From NCBI GenBank assembly GCA_021815445.1, contig JAKAGM010000001.1:3447-67446 (forward strand): 64,000 nt of DNA, given 5' to 3'. Under the pieces are notes generated by a model. That model ran no database searches and was not told the DNA's origin. It saw nothing but the letters and a program-made list of their open reading frames with translations. This document shows, piece after piece, positions 2,508-49,637 of the stretch (position 1 is its first letter; each line of letters starts with the position of its first letter). The translations under genes and the position numbers were made by a program. This DNA comes from a bacterium. Its GTDB lineage: Bacteria > Patescibacteriota > Patescibacteriia > UBA10025.

Positions 2508-2981
2508 ATGCTCGATATAGCGTTTCGCTCAGTACATGGTGTTCGCGGCCCGCGTGAGGCTGTTACCGGAGTGCTGGGATGCGCAGCGCGGGTACCTCTG
2601 GTCAGGAAAAAACTTACACAAAGAACTCAGAACAGTGTCACGGTTATTTTTTGCGGGATATCCACAATTCGCGCATTGAACTTCCGTTATCGCAACGTGC
2701 GGAAACCTACCGATGTTCTGTCATTCTCATACCCGTTTTCGCGCCGAGATTCCCAGCATGGAGATTCAGTATTCCTTGGCGAGATATTTATCTGTGTCCC
2801 GATTGCCCGTCGGCAGGCTCGTGAATACGGACATTCCATGCGCGCGGAGATTGAGTTGTTGGTTGTGCATGGTTTATTACACATTCTTGGCTTTGATCAT
2901 ACCACTCGATCCGGGGCCCGGAAGATGAGGATAATCGAGAATAAAATTCTCCGGCGGACTGTTTCGAGAACCGAACATTAG
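2508..2981 (+). CDS. ybeY: endoribonuclease YbeY (rRNA maturation factor)
   Basis: HGLLHILGFDH zinc-binding motif typical of the YbeY/UPF0054 family; ATG at 2508 is in frame with the longer ORF that starts at 2400. Confidence 0.8.
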   Translation: MLDIAFRSVHGVRGPREAVTGVLGCAARVPLVRKKLTQRTQNSVTVIFCGISTIRALNFRYRNVRKPTDVLSFSYPFSRRDSQHGDSVFLGEIFICVPIARRQAREYGHSMRAEIELLVVHGLLHILGFDHTTRSGARKMRIIENKILRRTVSRTEH

Positions 2982-3042
2982 GCCCAAGGGTTTGGGGAAA
3001 CGGTTTTCCTCGATGCTATGTACGTTTTGATATCATAATCGT

Positions 3043-6999: not shown

Positions 7000-9777
7000 A
7001 TGTCCTCTTCCGACGTATCTCCTACCCAAACAAAGGTTAAGGAGTCGGTGAGTGTGCTGACTCAAGAGCAGACTGCGGGGGCCGCGCACGCACGCGAAGG
7101 ACTCCATATGGATTATTTTTTTTCCCGCAAGGGTGTGCACCCCTATGATGAGATCGAATGGGAACTGCGCGAAGCCAAGATTGTCGGAAGCGACGGGAAA
7201 GTCGTTTTTGAGCAAAAAGATGTTGAATTGCCTAAGACGTGGTCGCAGCTTGCGACGAATGTTGTCGTATCCAAATATTTTCGCGGCAGGCTCGGGAGTC
7301 CCGAGCGCGAAACAAGCGTCAAGCAGATGGTATCGAGGGTAGCCGATACGATTGCCGCATGGGGGAAAGCAGGAGGCTATTTCGCCAGCGACGAGGACGC
7401 GGAGACTTTCCGCATGGAGCTTACGCATCTTCTCGTCTATCAAAAAGCGGCGTTTAACAGTCCCGTGTGGTTTAATGTCGGGGTCAAGGAACATCCGCAA
7501 TGTTCGGCCTGCTTTATCCTCTCCGTCCAGGATTCCATGGAGTCTATTTTAGATTGGATCAGGAAAGAAGGACTCATCTTTAAGGGCGGGTCCGGATCAG
7601 GCGTCAACCTCTCGACGCTCCGGTCATCGCGGGAACAGCTGTCCGGCGGCGGGTACGCGTCCGGTCCGGTCTCGTTCATGCGCGGCGCCGATGCTTCGGC
7701 CGGTTCCATAAAATCCGGCGGCACGACGCGCAGGGCGGCCAAGATGGTTATCCTCAATGTCGACCACCCCGATATCATTGAATTCATACATTGCAAAGAG
7801 GTCGAGGAAAAGAAGGCGTGGGCGCTCGGCGAACAGGGATACGATATGTCGATGAACGGTGAGGCGTGGAAGTCCATCCAATTCCAGAATGCCAACAATT
7901 CAGTGCGCGCGACGGATGAATTCATGCAGGCTGTTGAGAATGACGGTCTCTTTTCTACCCGCTCGGTAGGCAGCCACAACCCCGTAGACCAATACCGTGC
8001 CCGCGACATCCTGCGGCAGATATCCGAGGCGACCTGGGTATGCGGCGATCCCGGTTTGCAGTACGACACTACGATCAATGCGTGGCACACCTGTCCCAAT
8101 ACGGGCAGGATTAACGCCTCGAATCCGTGTTCAGAGTACATGCACCTCGATAATTCAGCGTGCAACCTCTCCTCAATCAACCTGATGAAATTCCTCAAGG
8201 ACGATGATTCTTTCGATGTCGGGGGGTACAAACGGGCGATAGATATCATGATTCTCGCGCAGGAAATACTCGTAGGATTTTCGAGCTATCCGACGGAGGA
8301 AATCTCGCGGAATGCCCATGATTACCGGGAGCTCGGTCTGGGATACGCGAACCTCGGCGCTCTTCTAATGTCATGGGGCCTGCCGTATGATTCAGACGCG
8401 GGCCGCGCGGTGTCTGCGGCTCTCACGGCGTTTCTTACCGGTGAAGCGTATGCGGAATCGGCGCGAGTAGCCGCTGTCGTCGGGCCTTTTGCCGGATACG
8501 AGAAAAATCGCGAGCCCATGCTCAATGTTATCGCAAAACACAAATTTCACCTGGATGATATCAACCGGCACTACGTCCCGGCTGAACTTTTTGCCGCCGC
8601 TGAAACCTCATGGACAGACGCACTGGAGCTTGGCAAGCACAACGGATTCAGAAACTCACAGACGACTGTCCTTGCCCCCACCGGAACGATCAGCTTCCTG
8701 ATGGATTGTGATACGACAGGCATCGAGCCCGACATAGCCCTGGTCAAATACAAGAATCTTGTCGGCGGCGGCGTCATGAAGATTGTCAACCACTCGGTGC
8801 CTCGCGCCCTGCACAGGCTCGGGTACAGCCAGGACCAGGTCGACGCTATCATAAGGTACGTCGACGACAAGGGGACTATCGAAGGAGCTCCGGAACTGAA
8901 AGAGGAACATCTCTCAGTTTTCGACTGCGCGTTCAAACCGGCGAATGGCGTCCGCTTCATCCACTACATGGGCCATATCAGGATGATGGGAGCCGCGCAA
9001 CCGTTTATCTCCGGGGCCATCTCAAAGACGGTAAACCTGCCGAAAGAAGCGACTGTCGATGATATTTCCACTGCGTATACCGAAGGGTGGAAGCAAGGCC
9101 TCAAAGCGCTCGCCATTTATCGCGACGGTTCCAAGCGCACGCAACCGCTCTCGACGGCCGATGATGATACGACCCAAAAGACGCGTGAGACAAAGCAAAA
9201 GTCATTGCGCAGACGGCTGCCGGACGAGCGCAAATCCATCACCCACAAATTCTCCGTCGGCGGCCATGAGGGGTACATCACCGCCGGGCTCTATGACGAC
9301 GGTACGCCCGGAGAAGTGTTCATTACCATGGCGAAAGAAGGCTCGACAATATCGGGGCTCATGGATGCCTTTGCTACCTCAATCTCCATCGGCCTCCAGT
9401 ACGGCGTCCCGCTCAAGACGATGGTCAATAAGTTTTCCCACATGAGGTTCGAGCCCTCAGGATTTACCGGTAACGCTGATATTCCGATAGCAAAGTCGAT
9501 TGTCGATTACATCTTCCGCTGGATGGGCAGGAAATTCCTCCCCCAGGAGGAGCAGGCGGAGGCGACAAAAGAAGCTGTCAAACCGATTGTCGAGAATGGC
9601 AATCATGACAGTGTAAAAGCAGAGACAGCGCCATCTGTTCCGTCCGCGTTCCAGCAAAAGATAACGTTCACCAACCAGGAGGACGCGCCTGCATGCCAGA
9701 CCTGCGGATCAATCATGGTCCGCAACGCGGCCTGCTACAAATGCACCAACTGCGGCGCTACAAGCGGGTGCAGCTAA
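7000..9777 (+). CDS. nrdJ: ribonucleoside-diphosphate/triphosphate reductase, class II (adenosylcobalamin-dependent, NrdJ-like)
   Basis: 925 aa; ASGPVSFMRGADAS...NVDHPDIIEFI and the NPCSEY active-site region match monomeric class II RNRs; C-terminal CxxC...CxxC; no NrdB partner in the window; nrdR lies 12 bp upstream. Confidence 0.85.
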   Translation: MSSSDVSPTQTKVKESVSVLTQEQTAGAAHAREGLHMDYFFSRKGVHPYDEIEWELREAKIVGSDGKVVFEQKDVELPKTWSQLATNVVVSKYFRGRLGSPERETSVKQMVSRVADTIAAWGKAGGYFASDEDAETFRMELTHLLVYQKAAFNSPVWFNVGVKEHPQCSACFILSVQDSMESILDWIRKEGLIFKGGSGSGVNLSTLRSSREQLSGGGYASGPVSFMRGADASAGSIKSGGTTRRAAKMVILNVDHPDIIEFIHCKEVEEKKAWALGEQGYDMSMNGEAWKSIQFQNANNSVRATDEFMQAVENDGLFSTRSVGSHNPVDQYRARDILRQISEATWVCGDPGLQYDTTINAWHTCPNTGRINASNPCSEYMHLDNSACNLSSINLMKFLKDDDSFDVGGYKRAIDIMILAQEILVGFSSYPTEEISRNAHDYRELGLGYANLGALLMSWGLPYDSDAGRAVSAALTAFLTGEAYAESARVAAVVGPFAGYEKNREPMLNVIAKHKFHLDDINRHYVPAELFAAAETSWTDALELGKHNGFRNSQTTVLAPTGTISFLMDCDTTGIEPDIALVKYKNLVGGGVMKIVNHSVPRALHRLGYSQDQVDAIIRYVDDKGTIEGAPELKEEHLSVFDCAFKPANGVRFIHYMGHIRMMGAAQPFISGAISKTVNLPKEATVDDISTAYTEGWKQGLKALAIYRDGSKRTQPLSTADDDTTQKTRETKQKSLRRRLPDERKSITHKFSVGGHEGYITAGLYDDGTPGEVFITMAKEGSTISGLMDAFATSISIGLQYGVPLKTMVNKFSHMRFEPSGFTGNADIPIAKSIVDYIFRWMGRKFLPQEEQAEATKEAVKPIVENGNHDSVKAETAPSVPSAFQQKITFTNQEDAPACQTCGSIMVRNAACYKCTNCGATSGCS

Positions 9778-43231: not shown

Positions 43232-43631
43232 TGGTGGAGATGAGGGGAATTGCACCCCTGTCCAATATACGAACCAGTCAACGTCTCCAAGCTATCCTAT
43301 TTTAGCGTGGTCGATGGCAGAAGTCAAAATAGGAAAAAGGTCCTGCCATCCGAGTCTCGTGGTACGGCCGGGAGCAAGAGACACGCTCGTCGGTCGTCCT
43401 CCGTTTGTGACACCTCCGACCTTCTCAGGAGGAATCAGAAGGGGAGATGGTTATCGGTTTTTACGCGACAACAGGCGCAAAGGAAGGCGCAAATACGCTT
43501 GCAAGTGCGGTCTTCGCTTTGCTTACAAATGATTTGGCATTTGTCTAATTGGAGCCAGTTTAACGTCATGAACTGCCGTGGACGGCTTGCAGTTGAGATG
43601 GCAATGTACACTGTCGATTATAAGCATCCCC
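43232..43631 (-). ncRNA. ssrA: tmRNA (SsrA)
   Basis: 5' GGGGAUGCUUAUAAUCGACAG (acceptor G3-U wobble, UCGAC box) and 3' GGACAGGGGUGCAAUUCCCCUCAUCUCCACCA (T-arm plus acceptor plus CCA); 34 nt downstream of smpB; candidate tag frame ending ...APSFAPVVA-UAA (stop at 43463-43461). Confidence 0.8.
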
Positions 43632-43665: not shown

Positions 43666-44109
43666 TCAGTAGTCCAGCGCTTGCCTGATCCGCCGGTCAA
43701 CCTCGCGTTTCTTAATGGTTTCGCGCTTATCCTGTTTCTTCTTCCCGCGCGCCAAACCCAGCTCAACCTTGATCAAGCTACCCTTAGTATAGACAGAAAG
43801 CGGAATAAGTGTCAAGCCTGCCGAAGCCATCTTCCCGATCAATGATTTGATGTCCTCACGCTTCACAAGCAGCTTCTTTTCTCGGTCAGGATCCTCGTGG
43901 GATTCTTTCGAAGCACGCTGGTATCTCGCTATATGGCAGCCGATCAGCCAGAGTTCATTGCCGCGCATGCTCACATAACTTCCCATCAGAGTACAGTTGC
44001 CCAGCTTGACCGACTTTACCTCTGCGCCTCTCAATACAATACCGGCCTCAATTTTTTCGAGGATTGTGTAGTTGAAATAGCCTTTTTTGTTCTTAGCGAG
44101 GGTAGGCAT
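43666..44109 (-). CDS. smpB: SsrA-binding protein SmpB
   Basis: KGYFNYTILEKIEAGIVLRGAEVKS...LIPLSVY. Confidence 0.9.
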   Translation of the reverse strand: MPTLAKNKKGYFNYTILEKIEAGIVLRGAEVKSVKLGNCTLMGSYVSMRGNELWLIGCHIARYQRASKESHEDPDREKKLLVKREDIKSLIGKMASAGLTLIPLSVYTKGSLIKVELGLARGKKKQDKRETIKKREVDRRIRQALDY

Positions 44110-44232: not shown

Positions 44233-44586
44233 ATGCCAAAGCGTTCGATAGACTGGAACAAAAGAAAAACAAGCGATCTCTTTGAAGCGGTTCTCGCGCT
44301 TAAAACGCAGGATGAGTGCAGGCGTTTTTTCCGTGACCTGTGCACGCTTGAGGAAATTGCCGCACTTGCCGACAGGTGGCAGATGGTCAAAATGATGGTC
44401 CAAGGATATTCATACCGCGATATATCGGCGAAACTCAAAGTGAGCACAACGACTGTTGCCCGTGTCGCGCAGTGGTTCACACGAGGCGAAGAGGGTTATC
44501 GGCTCGTGGTTAAGAGACTGGGGCTCACCAGACTGCCTGAAGCAAAAATTTCTTCAAATCATTATCACCACGCTTCTCTTCACTGA
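44233..44586 (+). CDS. yerC: TrpR-like DNA-binding protein of the YerC/YecD family
   Basis: DLFEAVLALKTQDECRRFFRDLCTLEEIAALADRWQMVKMM...YRDISAKLKVSTTTVARV helix-turn-helix. Confidence 0.75.
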   Translation: MPKRSIDWNKRKTSDLFEAVLALKTQDECRRFFRDLCTLEEIAALADRWQMVKMMVQGYSYRDISAKLKVSTTTVARVAQWFTRGEEGYRLVVKRLGLTRLPEAKISSNHYHHASLH

Positions 44587-44627
44587 AGAGGTGTCGTGAT
44601 GTGGTAGACATTTCACCGCATCCGGAG

Positions 44628-44656
44628 AAACCCCTTCAGTGCAAGAGGTTTTTTTT
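44628..44656 (+). terminator. rho-independent terminator after yerC
   Basis: AAACCCCTT-cagtgc-AAGAGGTTT followed by T8. Confidence 0.55.
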
Positions 44657-44874
44657 GATACATGCGTACCTTGAGAAAATCTTGAGACACGATGGGACGT
44701 GATGACAACCGTTCGCACCGAGAGAGGTGTATGTTGATGCGACAACATAAACATACCCCCTTCTCGTCATTGAGAAGAGCTTGTCGGACTGCTCCTGCAA
44801 TCCGAGACTGTCACCGTCCGGTGGCCGCCCTCACTCTCGAGCTTGCTCATGTTCATTTCATTTGGAGGTGTACC

Positions 44875-45972
44875 GTGTCAAAGCACGAAGCCAGCACGCA
44901 AACAGTGTTCGATCCAATCGGCCAGCGCTATGAAGGCCTCGCCAGGCCGTCAGGACTTCGATACGGCATTATTGAGGTAACAACCCGGTGCCAACTCGCT
45001 TGCCCAGGATGCTACATGGTTCGACGTGGCGCGCTCAATCACGGCAGTTTGTCTTTTGACCAGGCGGTCGGCGTACTTGACCGGTGCTGCGAATATACTG
45101 GCCGAGAGCTCGAAACAATGGACATCCTCGGCGGCGAGCCGCTCCTGTGGCCGCCGCTCAAAGAATACATCGTCGAGCTACTCAATCGCGGCATCAAACC
45201 TTGGCTTTTTACCAACATGCTGACGATCACGCCGTCACTGGCCCGGTGGCTCTTTGAGCGGAAGGTGCATATCACCGGCAAGCTGAACGTGGATCCGTCT
45301 GATCCTGCTCAGCTCTCTGTCCAAGCGGCGATGATTGGCCGGAACGAGCGCGTAGCCCGCCGAATGGCCGCGGCAATTTCTGTTTGGCTTGGAGTCGGAT
45401 ATCGCAACCCATTATTCCGGCTCCAAAATCTGGTTCGTCAGGCAAACATCGGATTTGTGCCCGATTACTACCGCTGGTGCCTCGAACAAGGGATTGGGAC
45501 GGATCTTGAACTCATGGGTTCCGGCGAAACGGTAGGCGCGGAGTACTATGCGGTGGCGCCGACTCCGAAACAAGTCGCCCGCATGATAGAAGCGATCCAT
45601 GCGGTTCGGCGCGAGTACGGTTTGCCGGAAGCTGAAGTGCTGATGCCCCACGTCTTTGGATCCTGCCCTTTTTATGACAAGGGGCTCTACTTCGCCGCCG
45701 ACTGTTCAATCCGTGCCTGTTCCAACTCCACGGTCACGCTTGCACACTTAAGCGACCAGGATCCGATCCGGAAAGCCTATGAGTCGCCGCTCATCTGCCG
45801 CCGGCTCAGCCTGTGCCGTGAGGTGGTAGGAGAGCCATGCCGTTCGTGCGATCGGTGGGAACGGTGCCGCGGTGGCTGCCGGGCAACCGTGGAAGGGATG
45901 GGCGACCCGTACGGCGGATATACGCTTTGTCCGCTTCCTTACCTCGGCAATGGTAAGCCCAAAGTCGGCTAG
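44875..45972 (+). CDS. radical SAM enzyme with C-terminal SPASM domain
   Basis: CQLACPGCY (CxxxCxxC) near the N-terminus; SPASM-like C-terminal Cys cluster CSNSTV...ICRRLSLC...EPCRSCDRWERCRGGC; GTG start with GGAGG SD (an in-frame 61-codon stop-free extension back to ATG 44692 was noted but not preferred). Confidence 0.8.
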   Translation: MSKHEASTQTVFDPIGQRYEGLARPSGLRYGIIEVTTRCQLACPGCYMVRRGALNHGSLSFDQAVGVLDRCCEYTGRELETMDILGGEPLLWPPLKEYIVELLNRGIKPWLFTNMLTITPSLARWLFERKVHITGKLNVDPSDPAQLSVQAAMIGRNERVARRMAAAISVWLGVGYRNPLFRLQNLVRQANIGFVPDYYRWCLEQGIGTDLELMGSGETVGAEYYAVAPTPKQVARMIEAIHAVRREYGLPEAEVLMPHVFGSCPFYDKGLYFAADCSIRACSNSTVTLAHLSDQDPIRKAYESPLICRRLSLCREVVGEPCRSCDRWERCRGGCRATVEGMGDPYGGYTLCPLPYLGNGKPKVG

Positions 45973-46045
45973 GCAGCACGCAATAGTAGCGGGGGGCTGG
46001 AATAATGAACTTCTAAAGTTCCGGCCCCCCTATTTTCTCTCGACT

Positions 46046-46588
46046 ATGCGTCAAAAAATTATTACAACAGCTCAAAAGAAATTACTAGAGCTTAACCGCC
46101 GATACAACGGGTTCATGGCAGTCATCCTTGATAACTGGCGCGGTTATCGTTTTATTTACGACACTGTCGATGTTCGACGATGCCAGAATAATTGCACGCA
46201 GTGTCCGCTTTTCCGATTGTTAGCAAATGAAAAAGACGGCGCTTTTACAGCTCGCCTTCTCCGGGCGTCGCCTGCCGACCGCAGACTGTTCGGTCCCCAA
46301 AAGTATCTCAATTGTAAAACAATTTCGCAGTACCGAATGTGTTATAAGAATTTTATTGCTCAAAAAATAGCAACGCAAAAAGAATTGACGGCCGAATTAC
46401 GGCTTGTTCAAGGACTCAGGGTGCTCTACGCCAAAGAGCGAGATCCCTTGCTTGTCGAACAAGAGATAAAAAGGAATATTATCAACTTTTCTGCTCGATG
46501 GTCGCCACTCTCAGCAGCAGCCGGCAAGAGCCGGCGCAAATCATTTGACAGCTTGTTGAAAAAGGATTACACTTTATCCACATTATGA
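46046..46588 (+). CDS. hypothetical protein with CxxxCxxC motif (AT-rich gene)
   Basis: VRRCQNNCTQCPLF at residues ~45-55 with additional Cys; too short for a full radical-SAM barrel; GC far below its neighbours; start uncertain. Confidence 0.4.
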   Translation: MRQKIITTAQKKLLELNRRYNGFMAVILDNWRGYRFIYDTVDVRRCQNNCTQCPLFRLLANEKDGAFTARLLRASPADRRLFGPQKYLNCKTISQYRMCYKNFIAQKIATQKELTAELRLVQGLRVLYAKERDPLLVEQEIKRNIINFSARWSPLSAAAGKSRRKSFDSLLKKDYTLSTL

Positions 46589-46718
46589 ATCTAACTTCAC
46601 TCCAACAGAAAAACCTGAAGATGTTCCGCTGGAACTTTCGTCACTATGGCGGCAGGGTTTCTTTACTGTTTGGAGTAGATATGGCGTAATAACGAATTCC
46701 AAAATATTCCACAGAAAG

Positions 46719-46748
46719 AAACCTCAAGCTGCCGCTCGAGGTTTTTTG
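46719..46748 (+). terminator. rho-independent terminator
   Basis: CCTCAAGC-tgcc-GCTCGAGG followed by TTTTTT. Confidence 0.5.
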
Positions 46749-46772
46749 GTAAATAATTAATTTTAAGAAAGT

Positions 46773-47663
46773 ATGAACACACGCACGATTTTCATCGGAA
46801 CTATCGGCACATTCCGCGTCGAGATCCCGGTTATAGAAATAGGCTCAGGAGAGCCGAAAGGTTTGATTGTGGCCGTTCAACACGGGGGTGAGCTAAGCCC
46901 GTTATGGATTATCAAAGAACTTATCAACGCTCCCCCACGTTCGGGCGCCATGACGCTAATTCCCGTAGCAAATCCATTCGGATTCGTGTTTGGGGAGCGA
47001 AATGAGGTCATCGAACAGAAAGATCCGAACCGCCAATATCCGGGGAGGGCAAGCGGTGATTTCTCAGCCAGGATCGCGGATAAAATTTTTTCCCTGGCAA
47101 AGGAGGCTGACTTCGTTGTCGACCTGCACACGTTTACGCGCCAAGCTCCATTCCTTGTCGGCTATGAACGGGGCGGGATATCAGACGGTAACGATGTGGA
47201 AAAACTCATCCAACTGCTAGGGCCGGATGTCGTATGGACGGTTGATGAAAAGCAAGGAGAGGATAGGCGGTTTGCCGGAAGTTTTGACGGCGCTCTGGGG
47301 CGGGAGGGCGTCCCGTCGGTATTCATTGAAATGCCGAACTACCAGATGATTTCACAGGATCTCATTGTCCGTATCGCTTCCGGTATCAGAAACGTATTCG
47401 AAGGGTACTCGTCGCCTTTTCAAAAAGGGAAGGAGATCAAAAGGTTCTCGGCAAAGTATCTGTACGCGGATGATGCTGGGATCTTTGATCCGACGGTGAA
47501 ACCGCTTGAAACAGTTGTTGCGGGACAGGAGATTGGCACGCTTTATCTTCTGCCAAATTTCAAAAAGCAAAAGGTGATCACGCCCATCGGAGGGACGGTA
47601 CTCACGGTAAAAGGAAAGGATGTGATAAGGACAGGGACAAAACTTGCCAGTATCGGAGTGTAA
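46773..47663 (+). CDS. succinylglutamate desuccinylase/aspartoacylase (AstE/AspA) family zinc hydrolase
   Basis: VAVQHGGELSP (H-x-x-E zinc site) and DLHT second His region, typical of M14-like AstE/AspA deacylases. Confidence 0.7.
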   Translation: MNTRTIFIGTIGTFRVEIPVIEIGSGEPKGLIVAVQHGGELSPLWIIKELINAPPRSGAMTLIPVANPFGFVFGERNEVIEQKDPNRQYPGRASGDFSARIADKIFSLAKEADFVVDLHTFTRQAPFLVGYERGGISDGNDVEKLIQLLGPDVVWTVDEKQGEDRRFAGSFDGALGREGVPSVFIEMPNYQMISQDLIVRIASGIRNVFEGYSSPFQKGKEIKRFSAKYLYADDAGIFDPTVKPLETVVAGQEIGTLYLLPNFKKQKVITPIGGTVLTVKGKDVIRTGTKLASIGV

Positions 47664-47720
47664 ACCGCACGAAACAGAAAACAACAGAGAACGTTCACAA
47701 TTCACGAAAGGGGAGTGGTC

Positions 47721-49097
47721 ATGAGACCAACTCAAGAGCTGTTCAGCGATTTGCTGGCACAGGGATGCTCGTTTCGGTATCAGCCCGAGCGTTTCTGCGA
47801 ACTCGAAGGCGGAGGGCATCCGTATCCTTCACTCACACGTACAGTTTCCACACCTTCCGGCGACATGATCGAGGAGCTTATCCAGCCGGTGCTGCAACCG
47901 ATTGTCCTCGACCAACGTCTTGTCGCCAATGTACGGAAAGCTTCGGCGGCGTGGCCAACGTTTCTCGGGGTCCAACTCGAGCTTTTCCGCGCGGCGCAAA
48001 AAGGCGAGCTCAGCGGATCGGACGTCGCACTCATTAGGGGTATGTGCACCGAGCGGGAATGGAAGTGCGGACTCGTAGAGCCCGGCTACCGGACGATTCA
48101 CCCGTTTATCCGCCTGGACGCCGTGTTGACCGATGACGGTTTTAAAGTCATCGATATCAATTCGACGCGTCCGGCCGGCGTAGGGGACCTGCTCGGTTTC
48201 CACGTGGCGATGAACGGCAGTGATGGTTCGGGCATCAAACCGTTTCCCATCGGGTGCTCATTCAGCCGCATCGTGTCTTCGTGCGTGGGCGACTGGGCCT
48301 CGGCAAAACATCTGCCGGGCGAGTCGATTCCCGTTGATATTGTCGTGCGGCACACGGACGGTGACTGGAACAATTTCCGGAACCTGAGCCGCCAGCTGGC
48401 ACGTTCAGGCCTGAATACCCGGCTCATCGAACCAGATGAACTGAGGAGCGGAGAGCCAAGCGCCATTGTGCGGGGTCGCATCAAGGAAGGCGACCCGGCG
48501 TATGCCATCTTGCAGCAGGGTTACCCGAATGAGCGCTGCGTGATGTCTCCGCTCTATCGCCGTTTCCTCGGAAACAAAGTGTGGATGTATCTTTTCCGGA
48601 TTCCGCCGTTCTCCGAGCATTTCAAGCGGGTAATGGGCGAGGCATACCAGCTTTTTGACCGTCTGTTCCCGCCCATAGGGCTCTTTTCCGGCACCTCCGT
48701 TCGTTTCCCGGAAGGCTTCCTGGATATCGCGAAACTCGATCGGCAAGAATGGGTCCTCAAAGATCCGGCGAGCTCGTCAGGGCGCAGGATGTATCTCGGG
48801 TACCTGATGGGAAAGAAAAAATGGGCCGATGCGCTTGCGCAGATGCAGGACGGCTGGATCGTGCAGCGTTTCTACCGCGCGACCGAAAAACTTGCAGTTG
48901 CCGGTCCGTGTGGCGAGCCGATTGAAGAATCGCTCTTCACGAAGTACGGCATCTACATTTTCGGTTCGGAGCTTGCCGGACTGGAATTCAACGCCCGGAA
49001 AATGCCCGTTGTCCATGGTGCGCGGAATACATACTGCAACGCCGTGTACGAAACCGCAGGCCCCTCATCGTGCGCAGGAGAATTGGGGGCTCAATGA
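47721..49097 (+). CDS. ATP-grasp superfamily amidoligase, apparently circularly permuted
   Basis: FIRLDAVLTDDGFKVIDINSTRP (Mg-binding E/D-x-N segment) lies N-terminal to WVLKDPASSSGRRMYLG...WIVQRFY (nucleotide-binding loop), the reverse of the usual ATP-grasp order; SD AAAGGGGAG. Confidence 0.6.
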   Translation: MRPTQELFSDLLAQGCSFRYQPERFCELEGGGHPYPSLTRTVSTPSGDMIEELIQPVLQPIVLDQRLVANVRKASAAWPTFLGVQLELFRAAQKGELSGSDVALIRGMCTEREWKCGLVEPGYRTIHPFIRLDAVLTDDGFKVIDINSTRPAGVGDLLGFHVAMNGSDGSGIKPFPIGCSFSRIVSSCVGDWASAKHLPGESIPVDIVVRHTDGDWNNFRNLSRQLARSGLNTRLIEPDELRSGEPSAIVRGRIKEGDPAYAILQQGYPNERCVMSPLYRRFLGNKVWMYLFRIPPFSEHFKRVMGEAYQLFDRLFPPIGLFSGTSVRFPEGFLDIAKLDRQEWVLKDPASSSGRRMYLGYLMGKKKWADALAQMQDGWIVQRFYRATEKLAVAGPCGEPIEESLFTKYGIYIFGSELAGLEFNARKMPVVHGARNTYCNAVYETAGPSSCAGELGAQ

Positions 49098-49483
49098 TCC
49101 CCATGGTCAGCAAGTATTGGCTTGTCCGCGTTTGGGATATTAAAGATGTCCTGAGCGACTACGGGTTGACACCTGAGCAGACTGCGACTGTATGCGGTAC
49201 TATCGTGAACAACACGTGCATCCGCTTTACAATACAGTCGCAGTATCAGTGCGGAGTTGGCGAACCTCACGTAGTACCTTTTACCGGCGAGTACGTGGGT
49301 GTGTTTCCCGCCTTGATCCGATCGTCGCTCCTCGAGCACCATGTCATCCTCCGGCGATACAGGAGAATGATATTCCGACTCTGGAATCGGAAAGTCGCTA
49401 CTATGTATCTCGGGACGCTGGTGTGCGCGGAGCACTTTACGTACGTTAAGTCTATTCCCCTGGACTATTGGGGACCATGGTAA
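49094..49483 (+). CDS. hypothetical protein translationally coupled to the ATP-grasp gene
   Basis: ATGA start/stop overlap at 49094-49097; 129 aa ending ...PLDYWGPW. Confidence 0.45.
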   Translation: MIPMVSKYWLVRVWDIKDVLSDYGLTPEQTATVCGTIVNNTCIRFTIQSQYQCGVGEPHVVPFTGEYVGVFPALIRSSLLEHHVILRRYRRMIFRLWNRKVATMYLGTLVCAEHFTYVKSIPLDYWGPW

Positions 49484-49600
49484 CGCAAAGCAGAGTGGCA
49501 GTGGAACCTGATCGAAAGATTTGGGTCTGTAAGATCAGTAGGTTCCTCTGCACACTCTGCAGAATGCAGGCTAGGCGATCCGTCTCGGATTGTCAAGCCG

Positions 49601-49637
49601 ACAGGCAGAGCTTTTTTGAGCTATCTGCCTGTTTTTC
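49601..49637 (+). terminator. rho-independent terminator closing the 44.9-49.5 kb cluster
   Basis: ACAGGCAGA-(14 nt)-TCTGCCTGT followed by TTTTT. Confidence 0.6.

Follow-up and report, generated by a model that had tools for sequence, protein, structure and literature searches.

We analysed a window of 64,000 nucleotides (nt) from the genome of a member of the Patescibacteria (contig JAKAGM010000001.1), focusing on five plus-strand genes that encode a radical S-adenosylmethionine (SAM) enzyme with a SPASM-type C-terminal domain (rSAM, 44875-45972), a 180-amino acid (aa) partner (gene 2, 46046-46588), a zinc amidohydrolase of the AstE/AspA family (46773-47663), a 458-aa ATP-grasp-type ligase with a predicted permuted, glutathione synthetase (GS)/GspS-like fold (47721-49097), and a 129-aa protein (49094-49483). 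A check of the open reading frames (ORFs) of the window confirmed the position and common orientation of all five. The initial annotation had read them as one cluster for the modification of a peptide or a small molecule. Our comparison with related loci argues for a different organization, which we consider probable: two independent transcription units that are neighbours in this genome only. Unit A consists of yerC (hisR), a leader RNA, rSAM, and gene 2, and unit B of a promoter, a leader, and the genes for the hydrolase, the ligase and the 129-aa protein. Both units appear to be undescribed.

Patescibacteria represent a large share of bacterial diversity, and their tiny genomes contain many conserved genes with no assigned role. 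In general, they are believed to rely on the scavenging of amino acids. What seemed to be a one-off biosynthetic cluster in one of these genomes becomes, in the preferred reading, two testable units.

The five genes belong to two groups with disjoint distributions

To describe the gene neighbourhoods, we examined 79 rSAM loci and collected 14 ligase loci other than that of the window. The hydrolase and ligase genes were present in none of the 79 rSAM loci. Conversely, rSAM and gene 2 gave no tblastn match in 12 of the other ligase loci and were found in none of the 14. Among the loci examined, all five genes occur together in this genome only; the five-gene block is thus not conserved across relatives, and the idea of a ribosomal-peptide modification cluster inherited as a unit does not hold. 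Within each group, linkage is tight. The hydrolase gene lies directly upstream of the ligase gene, in the same order, at all 14 loci with upstream sequence (gaps of 49-163 nt), which bears out the expectation that these two genes would remain linked in related genomes. Upstream of rSAM there is a yerC gene in 61 of 68 loci, gene 2 follows rSAM in 54 of 55, and no other family was found near rSAM in more than seven loci. This yerC-rSAM-gene 2 grouping was seen in about 60 Patescibacteria loci. rSAM belongs with the upstream yerC, a gene that had been placed outside the cluster. In the closest relatives (loci L004, L096, and L097), the order is smpB, yerC, and then, without rSAM or gene 2, the hydrolase gene, the ligase gene, in some cases the 129-aa ORF, and argS.

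The initial annotation had overlooked three internal signals, all on the plus strand. These are (i) in the rSAM-gene 2 intergenic region, a GC-rich hairpin of 13 bp with UAUUUUCU after it (45991-46030; −28.7 kcal/mol, z = −3.55), whose role could be termination, processing, or stabilisation, (ii) a σ70-like promoter, TTGACA-17-TACACT, within the 3' end of gene 2 (46545-46573), and (iii) a terminator hairpin that has a U6 run and lies 26 nt upstream of the start of the hydrolase gene (46716-46747; −15.3 kcal/mol, z = −3.4). Of the two terminators that were said to bracket the cluster, the right-hand one, which closes unit B, is strong (49600-49637, plus strand; −29.2 kcal/mol, z = −6.8, followed by a U run), whereas the left-hand one (44628-44656) is weak as a plain terminator (z = −1.3) and forms part of the attenuator-like element described below. 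It is on the basis of the disjoint distribution, together with the internal hairpins, the promoter, and a leader ORF that is kept in relatives lacking rSAM, that we separate the two units. More generally, contiguity and flanking hairpins in a single genome are weak evidence for a pathway.

Unit A has an attenuator-like leader RNA with His codons

Between yerC (44233-44586, plus strand) and rSAM, a covariance model, R1, detects an attenuator-like leader (44547-44659, plus strand) with a score of 41.8 bits (E = 6.6e-6). In the window, this leader comprises His codons (44560-44571) within the tail of YerC, which ends in NHYHHASLH followed by the stop codon, a small hairpin across that stop codon (about 44574-44592), and a terminator with a U8 run (44628-44656). 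At other loci, the usual form of the YerC tail is N-H-H-H-N-S-S-x-x-G-K-G-L-x and stop, and at least 47 of 54 leaders contain HH or HHH codons. These codons are, in at least eight lineages, found not in the YerC tail but in a free ORF of 15-27 codons, such as MNKISKNIIHHQIVSP or MNAINSQKINEILNQHHHNFSSLGRGLC, each followed by a stop codon; free leader ORFs are present in L026, L049, L093, L094, L085, L027, L031, L089, and L096. The hairpin starts immediately after the His codons, and the terminator lies further downstream, in most loci with the conserved sequence CCCCTTCTC-loop-GAGAAGGGG-UUUU and stems of 9-12 bp.

The consensus structure obtained with RNAalifold is the alternative pairing, in which the 3' half of the first hairpin pairs with the 5' half of the terminator to form an antiterminator. 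As assessed on 31 loci, the antiterminator helix displays compensatory double changes at 15 of 15 pairs, and 89.7% of its cells are paired compared with 74.8% in shuffles, none of 500 shuffles being as good. Compensatory cells number 76 versus 22 in shuffles, and slid controls pair at 39-62%. The first hairpin (P1 helix) is 80.9% paired. R1 also matches loci outside its training set, always just before rSAM, as well as L004, L096, L015, and L008. Further leaders were located in L017 (4848-4958), in L062 (1735-1844), and at about 55 other loci. When the leader of the window and 11 loci were scanned against Rfam, using both gathering and E-value thresholds, tRNAs and tmRNA were the only families found and there was no leader family. 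The residues that follow the His run vary freely (NSSPVGKGL, NPAKLRRGL, or NFFSSEKRL), without loss of pairing or of the match to the terminator arm, which points to RNA structure as the main constraint on the leader. As judged from these sequences, the unit A leader is apparently an undescribed attenuator, and thus a new cis-regulatory RNA outside Rfam.

In the mechanism that we propose, stalling of a ribosome at the His codons would mask segment 1 of the four in the RNA, segment 2 would then pair with segment 3 to form the antiterminator, and rSAM and gene 2 would be transcribed. A ribosome reaching the stop codon would cover segment 2, and the terminator would form between segments 3 and 4. 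Histidine regulation by HisR and by leader attenuators of the hisL type offers the closest comparison, since unit A shares with these systems a YerC/HisR-type regulator of the TrpR family, His codons before a mutually exclusive antiterminator and terminator, and HisRS (histidyl-tRNA synthetase) and tRNA-His neighbours. However, classical hisL encodes a separate leader peptide, whereas the putative sensor in unit A is usually the C-terminal tail of the regulator itself, with two to three His codons only. Moreover, the element is found in Patescibacteria, and its candidate targets are rSAM and gene 2, or tRNA-His genes, rather than histidine biosynthesis or transport. A leader in which the last codons of a repressor serve as the attenuator sensor would, if confirmed, be unusual.

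Two additional leader copies were observed. In the window, a degenerate second copy (44685-44789, plus strand; R1 score of 31.9 bits, E = 9.5e-4) has an arm, CCCCCTTCTCGTCATTGAGAAGAG, at 44757-44780 and no U run. It lies in a spacer of ∼220 nt (44657-44874) that is absent at other loci, which suggests a local duplication. In L038, a second copy of the leader RNA (7606-7748; 49.8 bits) is found downstream of gene 2 and ahead of another gene, and the leader cassette would therefore be able to control further cargo.

Unit A is associated with genes of histidine regulation and histidyl-tRNA supply

The product of yerC is a TrpR-like regulator of the YerC/HisR family, scoring 87.4 bits against TIGR02531 (YerC/YecD; cut-off of 42.2) and matching PF01371 (5.5e-24). 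The YerC protein of Bacillus subtilis is the repressor HisR, whose binding to TTTA-N6-TAAA depends on L-histidine (Ashniev et al. 2022, PMC9413887); the published HisR consensus is cacTTTAnnnnnnTAAAgtg (PMC9413887). In the window, a conserved ATGTTCATTT motif followed by the GGAGG ribosome-binding site (RBS) of rSAM (44849-44868, plus strand) is a candidate HisR half-site. A GTTCTTTA-like motif, G[TC]TC[TAC]TT, is present in 23 of 63 segments upstream of the rSAM RBS compared with 2.3 expected, and L015 has a perfect TTTA-N6-TAAA palindrome at the equivalent place. By its resemblance to a HisR half-site, this motif may be an operator, and its overlap with the rSAM RBS may add repression by histidine.

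The gene hisS, encoding HisRS, is the sole other recurrent neighbour of the rSAM-gene 2 pair, in six distinct loci. It lies directly upstream of rSAM in L042 (132-1355) and L089 (531-2375), downstream of gene 2 in L081 (7722-8936), L090 (1886-2375), and L060 (9002-10243), and divergent from yerC in L019 (3143-4366). In L089, hisS is preceded by tRNA-His and followed by a free HHH leader ORF and then by rSAM. In L004 and L096, the place of rSAM after the leader is taken by tRNA-His (GTG) genes, two of them called by ARAGORN in each locus (among L004 1443-1518, 1932-2008, and 2038-2110; L096 1647-1720 and 2095-2170), and the third in L004 is an Rfam call only. From the YerC match, the attenuator-like His leader, the HisRS and tRNA-His neighbours, and the candidate operator, we infer that a shortage of charged tRNA-His or of histidine turns on the expression of rSAM and gene 2, and that the pair acts in the supply of histidine or of tRNA-His. 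Such a link would give this enzyme pair a physiological handle.

Three other features were seen at these loci. One tRNA-His gene that follows the leader, called by Rfam only, has a C33, and a conserved 93-aa ORF lies between the tRNA-His genes of L004 (1575-1856). In L097, a 65-aa His-rich ORF (2840-3037), preceded by a CTCTTTCA motif and an RBS, follows yerC and fills the slot occupied by rSAM elsewhere.

rSAM and gene 2 form a conserved pair

The GTG start of rSAM at 44875 is backed by a GGAGG sequence 7 nt upstream and by the N termini of 21 homologues. The match of rSAM to PF04055 is marginal (29.9 bits, cut-off of 29.5). Its SAM-cluster motif CxxxCxxC (C39/C43/C46) is invariant in 22 homologues, as is a complete seven-Cys SPASM pattern (C264, G277-x4-C282, C322-x2-C325-x5-C331-x3-C335, and C352). 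The SPASM segment also has a weak local match in the PDB to PqqE (6c8v). Its prior assignment as a radical-SAM enzyme is supported by the CxxxCxxC motif and by PF04055. For the SPASM domain, the signals diverge: the Cys pattern and the PqqE match point to it, but the SPASM hidden Markov model (HMM) itself, TIGR04085, yields 17.4 bits, which is under the cut-off of 27 bits. PqqE and MftC, which share the CxxxCxxC motif and the seven-Cys pattern, are its best HMM matches, but these are weak (about 35 bits versus cut-offs of 265-381). Furthermore, the fold of the partner, gene 2, is different and finds no match, and no recognition domain (RRE; PqqD- or MftB-like) was seen in the rSAM module. Unlike natural-product maturases, rSAM is highly conserved, at about 60-70% identity across candidate phyla. 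Indeed, its 253 homologues (57-71% identity) are spread over many candidate phyla of the Patescibacteria, the range of the family including Buchanan-, Doudna-, Gribaldo-, Magasanik-, Gracili-, and Peregrinibacteria.

The start of gene 2 at 46046 was placed using its homologues. Its predicted structure is confident, with a fold for which a structure search revealed no recognisable relative, and scans of Pfam and NCBIfam gave no match. The CxxxCxxC motif for which gene 2 had been singled out is present in the window but missing from 3 of 22 homologues, and we therefore rejected it as a defining Fe-S or radical-SAM feature.

Several other candidates around the pair were discarded. An in-frame extension of 61 codons upstream of rSAM, proposed as a possible precursor peptide, is not conserved; it was ruled out because homologues start at the GTG and because the extension overlaps the leader RNA. 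The rSAM loci revealed no conserved small plus-strand ORF downstream of gene 2, and apparent minus-strand peptides around the two genes proved to be read from the antisense strand of the leader RNA, of the YerC tail, and of the region for the rSAM N terminus. A role in anti-phage defence, for which PADLOC gave only a weak and generic viperin-core match (27.9 bits), was rejected since the rSAM family is conserved, syntenic, and tied to HisR.

Unit B has its own promoter and a candidate leader-peptide attenuator

Downstream of the promoter at 46545-46573 lies a leader ORF of 34 codons, MNLTSLQQKNLKMFRWNFRHYGGRVSLLFGVDMA (46585-46689, plus strand), whose ATG overlaps the stop codon of gene 2. This ORF is kept at 59-79% identity in L096 (2261-2362), L004 (2201-2302), and L097 (3116-3217), which are relatives without rSAM or gene 2, and a promoter of the form TTGACA-N17-TAnnnT recurs upstream of it in all three. 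A 22-aa ORF reported earlier at about 46633-46701 proved to be conserved, but its true position is 46621-46689 and it corresponds to the last 22 codons of the 34-codon ORF.

RNAalifold predicts that GGGTTTCTTTACTG of the 34-codon ORF pairs with CAG..AAGAAACC in the 5' arm of the terminator at 46716-46747. The segments AAAAACCTC and GAGGTTTCTTTACTG of the ORF can pair mutually or, alternatively, with the two arms of the terminator, CAG..AAGAAACCTC and GAGGTTTTTT. With these predicted pairings, the unit B leader has the geometry of a leader-peptide attenuator.

The ligase and hydrolase of unit B are a candidate make-and-break pair

The hydrolase scores 61.8 bits against PF24827 (cut-off of 25; 8.1e-17), and its motifs H37-x-x-E40, N86-R87..P-G-R, and D117-L-H119 align with those of DoeB and Mlr6093. 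The PF24827 match and these zinc/carboxylate motifs bear out the call of an AstE/AspA-family zinc amidohydrolase. With members of this family (succinylglutamate desuccinylase, aspartoacylase, and DoeB), it shares the Pfam catalytic domain and the HxxE, NR..PGR, and DLH motifs. It nevertheless scores only 36 bits against the DoeB equivalog model (cut-off of 403 bits), and differs from these enzymes by its constant position beside a GS-like ligase, with no Ast or ectoine pathway genes nearby.

For the ligase, there was no Pfam or NCBIfam match at E ≤ 0.1, including CP_ATPgrasp_1/2, GSP_synth, and GSH_synth_ATP, and a profile built from 32 ligase homologues found nothing among PDB sequences at E ≤ 10. 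Its AlphaFold 2 (AF2) model has a pLDDT of 92.8. As assessed by Foldseek against the PDB, the top matches of this model are 8fbz, 1m0w, and 2hgs, over the full length (E ∼1e-13, TM score of 0.61-0.67 in both normalisations), followed by YjfC, YgiC, GspS, TryS (trypanothione synthetase), and 3n6x. The best 50 PDB matches (E ≤ 1e-3) consist of eukaryotic GS, GS-like effectors, and the YjfC, YgiC, GspS, TryS, and 3n6x structures, with no classical ATP-grasp enzymes among them. In whole-length fold, the ligase thus resembles eukaryotic-type GS (2HGS, 1M0W), GspSA, YgiC, YjfC, and trypanothione synthetase. Polekhina and co-workers reportedly described eukaryotic GS, in 1999, as a permutation of the bacterial fold.

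In the alignment of homologues, invariant residues of the ligase include R131, D133, D145, N147, K255, K286, K408, and E422, and K347 and S352-S353-G are nearly invariant. The acidic-x-Asn motif D145-I-N147 stands N-terminal to the K347/SSSG loop. An acidic-x-Asn motif near residue 145, with a putative Lys/Gly-rich loop later in the sequence, would be the order that is permuted relative to classical ATP-grasp enzymes, as in eukaryotic GS and GspSA. When the ligase profile was compared by hhalign with human GS (a sequence identical to 2HGS), a single stretch of 14 columns was aligned, pairing KVIDINST with KQIEINTI (E144/N146), with an insignificant probability of 0.2. The proposal that the Mg-binding segment precedes the nucleotide-binding loop is thus supported by the match to eukaryotic GS at the level of the fold, but the alignment at the level of residues is insignificant. 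Unlike eukaryotic GS and GspSA, the ligase has no detectable membership in a sequence family and is restricted to a few Patescibacteria: its homologues form 32 protein clusters, and every named one is from this group. On its predicted structure, we assign the ligase to a new sequence family within the permuted GS/GspS-like ATP-grasp group.

The strict pairing of the two genes and the permuted GS/GspS-like architecture make a make-and-break reading reasonable. By analogy, the two enzymes probably make and break one amide bond. The ligase would convert a carboxylate into an acyl phosphate and couple it to an amine, the zinc hydrolase would cut the same type of bond (N-acyl or at a C-terminal amino acid), and together they would determine how much of one small amide or peptide tail is present. 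GspSA follows the same logic, a ligase being paired with a hydrolase that undoes its product, but there the amidase is a fused CHAP domain whereas the unit B hydrolase is a separate AstE/AspA zinc enzyme. The initial annotation had invoked reversible tagging by a ligase and a hydrolase, citing ligase/peptidase pairs such as TTLL and CCP of tubulin glutamylation, which operate on this principle, and this is still the best reading for these two genes, but it does not extend to the rSAM genes. With its constant zinc amidohydrolase partner, the ligase makes a clean system in which to look for a new small amide or peptide tag. A literature search for the pairing of ATP-grasp and AstE/AspA enzymes, or for YerC with radical SAM in Patescibacteria, returned nothing direct.

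The 129-aa ORF overlaps the ligase stop codon by a true ATGA, the translationally coupled arrangement that had been noted. Among 1.84 billion representatives, it has one genuine homologue (P0176, 129 aa, 49% identity), in L097, the gene for which likewise overlaps the ligase stop. The ORF was not found in the remaining ligase loci (tblastn, 12 loci), and scans of Pfam and NCBIfam gave no match. Multi-stretch matches to P0177-P0179 look like translated repeats or unrelated proteins, and we discarded the possibility that the ORF is a fragment of a repeat protein. It is probably a genuine, lineage-specific accessory gene. In L006, L012 (4354-5637), and L015 (5026-6318), genes for SHMT and FolD lie just upstream of the hydrolase-ligase pair, which is probably lineage synteny.

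Alternative readings of the locus

Some observations weigh against two independent units with a histidine-responsive unit A. The link to histidine is, at this stage, guilt by association, drawn from sequences and neighbours. The leader of the window is itself a weak copy (41.8 bits) and is followed by the extra spacer of ∼220 nt. The covariation controls leave part of the effect of sequence relatedness in place, and the His codons are also part of an extended stem, and their conservation could be due in part to RNA structure. For unit B, the attenuator rests on four similar sequences in which covariation is almost nil. As for the distributions, the inspected flanks span 6-8 kb and many contigs are short. 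Finally, HisR is encoded within 3 kb upstream of the hydrolase-ligase pair in 5 of 15 loci, and in two of the loci, L015 and L008, leader-like elements with His codons directly precede the hydrolase gene. In L015 (6768-7034), a HisR tail with HH codons is followed by a terminator, the perfect TTTA-N6-TAAA site, a 19-codon ORF, and the hydrolase-ligase pair. In L008 (5484-5616), a 22-codon leader, MAEQTQKNFWRHYHYLFEQRRV and stop (..WRHYHY..), with a similar terminator, lies before the hydrolase gene. In some genomes, units A and B may therefore be regulated in common, and their independence may be less than the distributions imply.

These loci lend some weight to a tentative extension of the two-unit reading, which we regard as possible but doubtful in its full form. 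The yerC (hisR)-His-leader-rSAM-gene 2 operon would serve a histidine-linked function, so far undescribed, that is induced at low levels of charged tRNA-His, for example a radical-SAM route to histidine or a step acting on tRNA-His, and the ligase-hydrolase pair would perhaps be a rarer cargo of the same cassette.

The same loci would fit a closer connection, in which units A and B are both cargo of one histidine regulon and are functionally linked, the ligase and hydrolase, for example, storing and releasing a histidine-containing amide, so that their adjacency is meaningful even if they are not one operon. This we hold to be unlikely: HisR is not encoded nearby in the other 10 of the 15 ligase loci, the 34-codon leader contains zero to one His codon in the window and in close relatives and has its own promoter, and no rSAM locus contains the hydrolase-ligase pair.

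The short ORFs could also be substrates rather than leaders, or could be both. In that case, the His-rich peptide or YerC tail would be modified by rSAM with gene 2 as a helper, in a PqqA/PqqE/PqqD-like manner, and the ligase would extend the C terminus of the 34-aa peptide, which the hydrolase would trim. Precursors are classically encoded by a small conserved ORF just before the gene for a SPASM enzyme, there is likeness at the peptide level in both the His-rich ORFs (HHxNxSP) and the 34-aa ORF (RWNFRHYGG.VSLL), and leaky terminators after precursor genes are known in clusters of this kind. However, the freedom of the residues after the His run, with pairing kept, makes RNA structure the dominant constraint, the C termini of the peptides are variable, rSAM has no visible RRE, and the leader of L004 and L096 precedes tRNA-His genes, which need no precursor. 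We judge this explanation to be improbable.

That all five genes form one pathway, with one peptide or cofactor as the common target of a SPASM maturase, its Cys-rich helper, the ligase, the hydrolase, and the coupled protein, is very hard to sustain, because their contiguity and common orientation in this genome, the usual role of SPASM enzymes as peptide maturases (with PqqE and MftC as the best weak matches), and the short conserved ORFs upstream of both enzyme groups are outweighed by a combination seen in one genome only (in none of the 79 rSAM and 14 other ligase loci), by the terminators, promoter, and separate leader between the groups, and by close relatives that keep the order of YerC, AstE, ligase, and ArgS without rSAM or gene 2.

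Features adjoining the two units

Upstream of yerC, on the minus strand, lie the neighbouring genes rplT, rpmI, and infC, and, adjoining it, the transfer-messenger RNA (tmRNA) gene (43232-43631) and smpB (43666-44109). Downstream of the 129-aa ORF, argS is on the plus strand. The G+C content varies across 44750-49250, with 57-61% in rSAM, 44% in gene 2, 58-60% in the ligase gene, and 46-50% in the flanks. The ORFs called across the tmRNA gene are spurious, and the tmRNA encodes the tag AKSFVSKAKTALASVFAPSFAPVVA.

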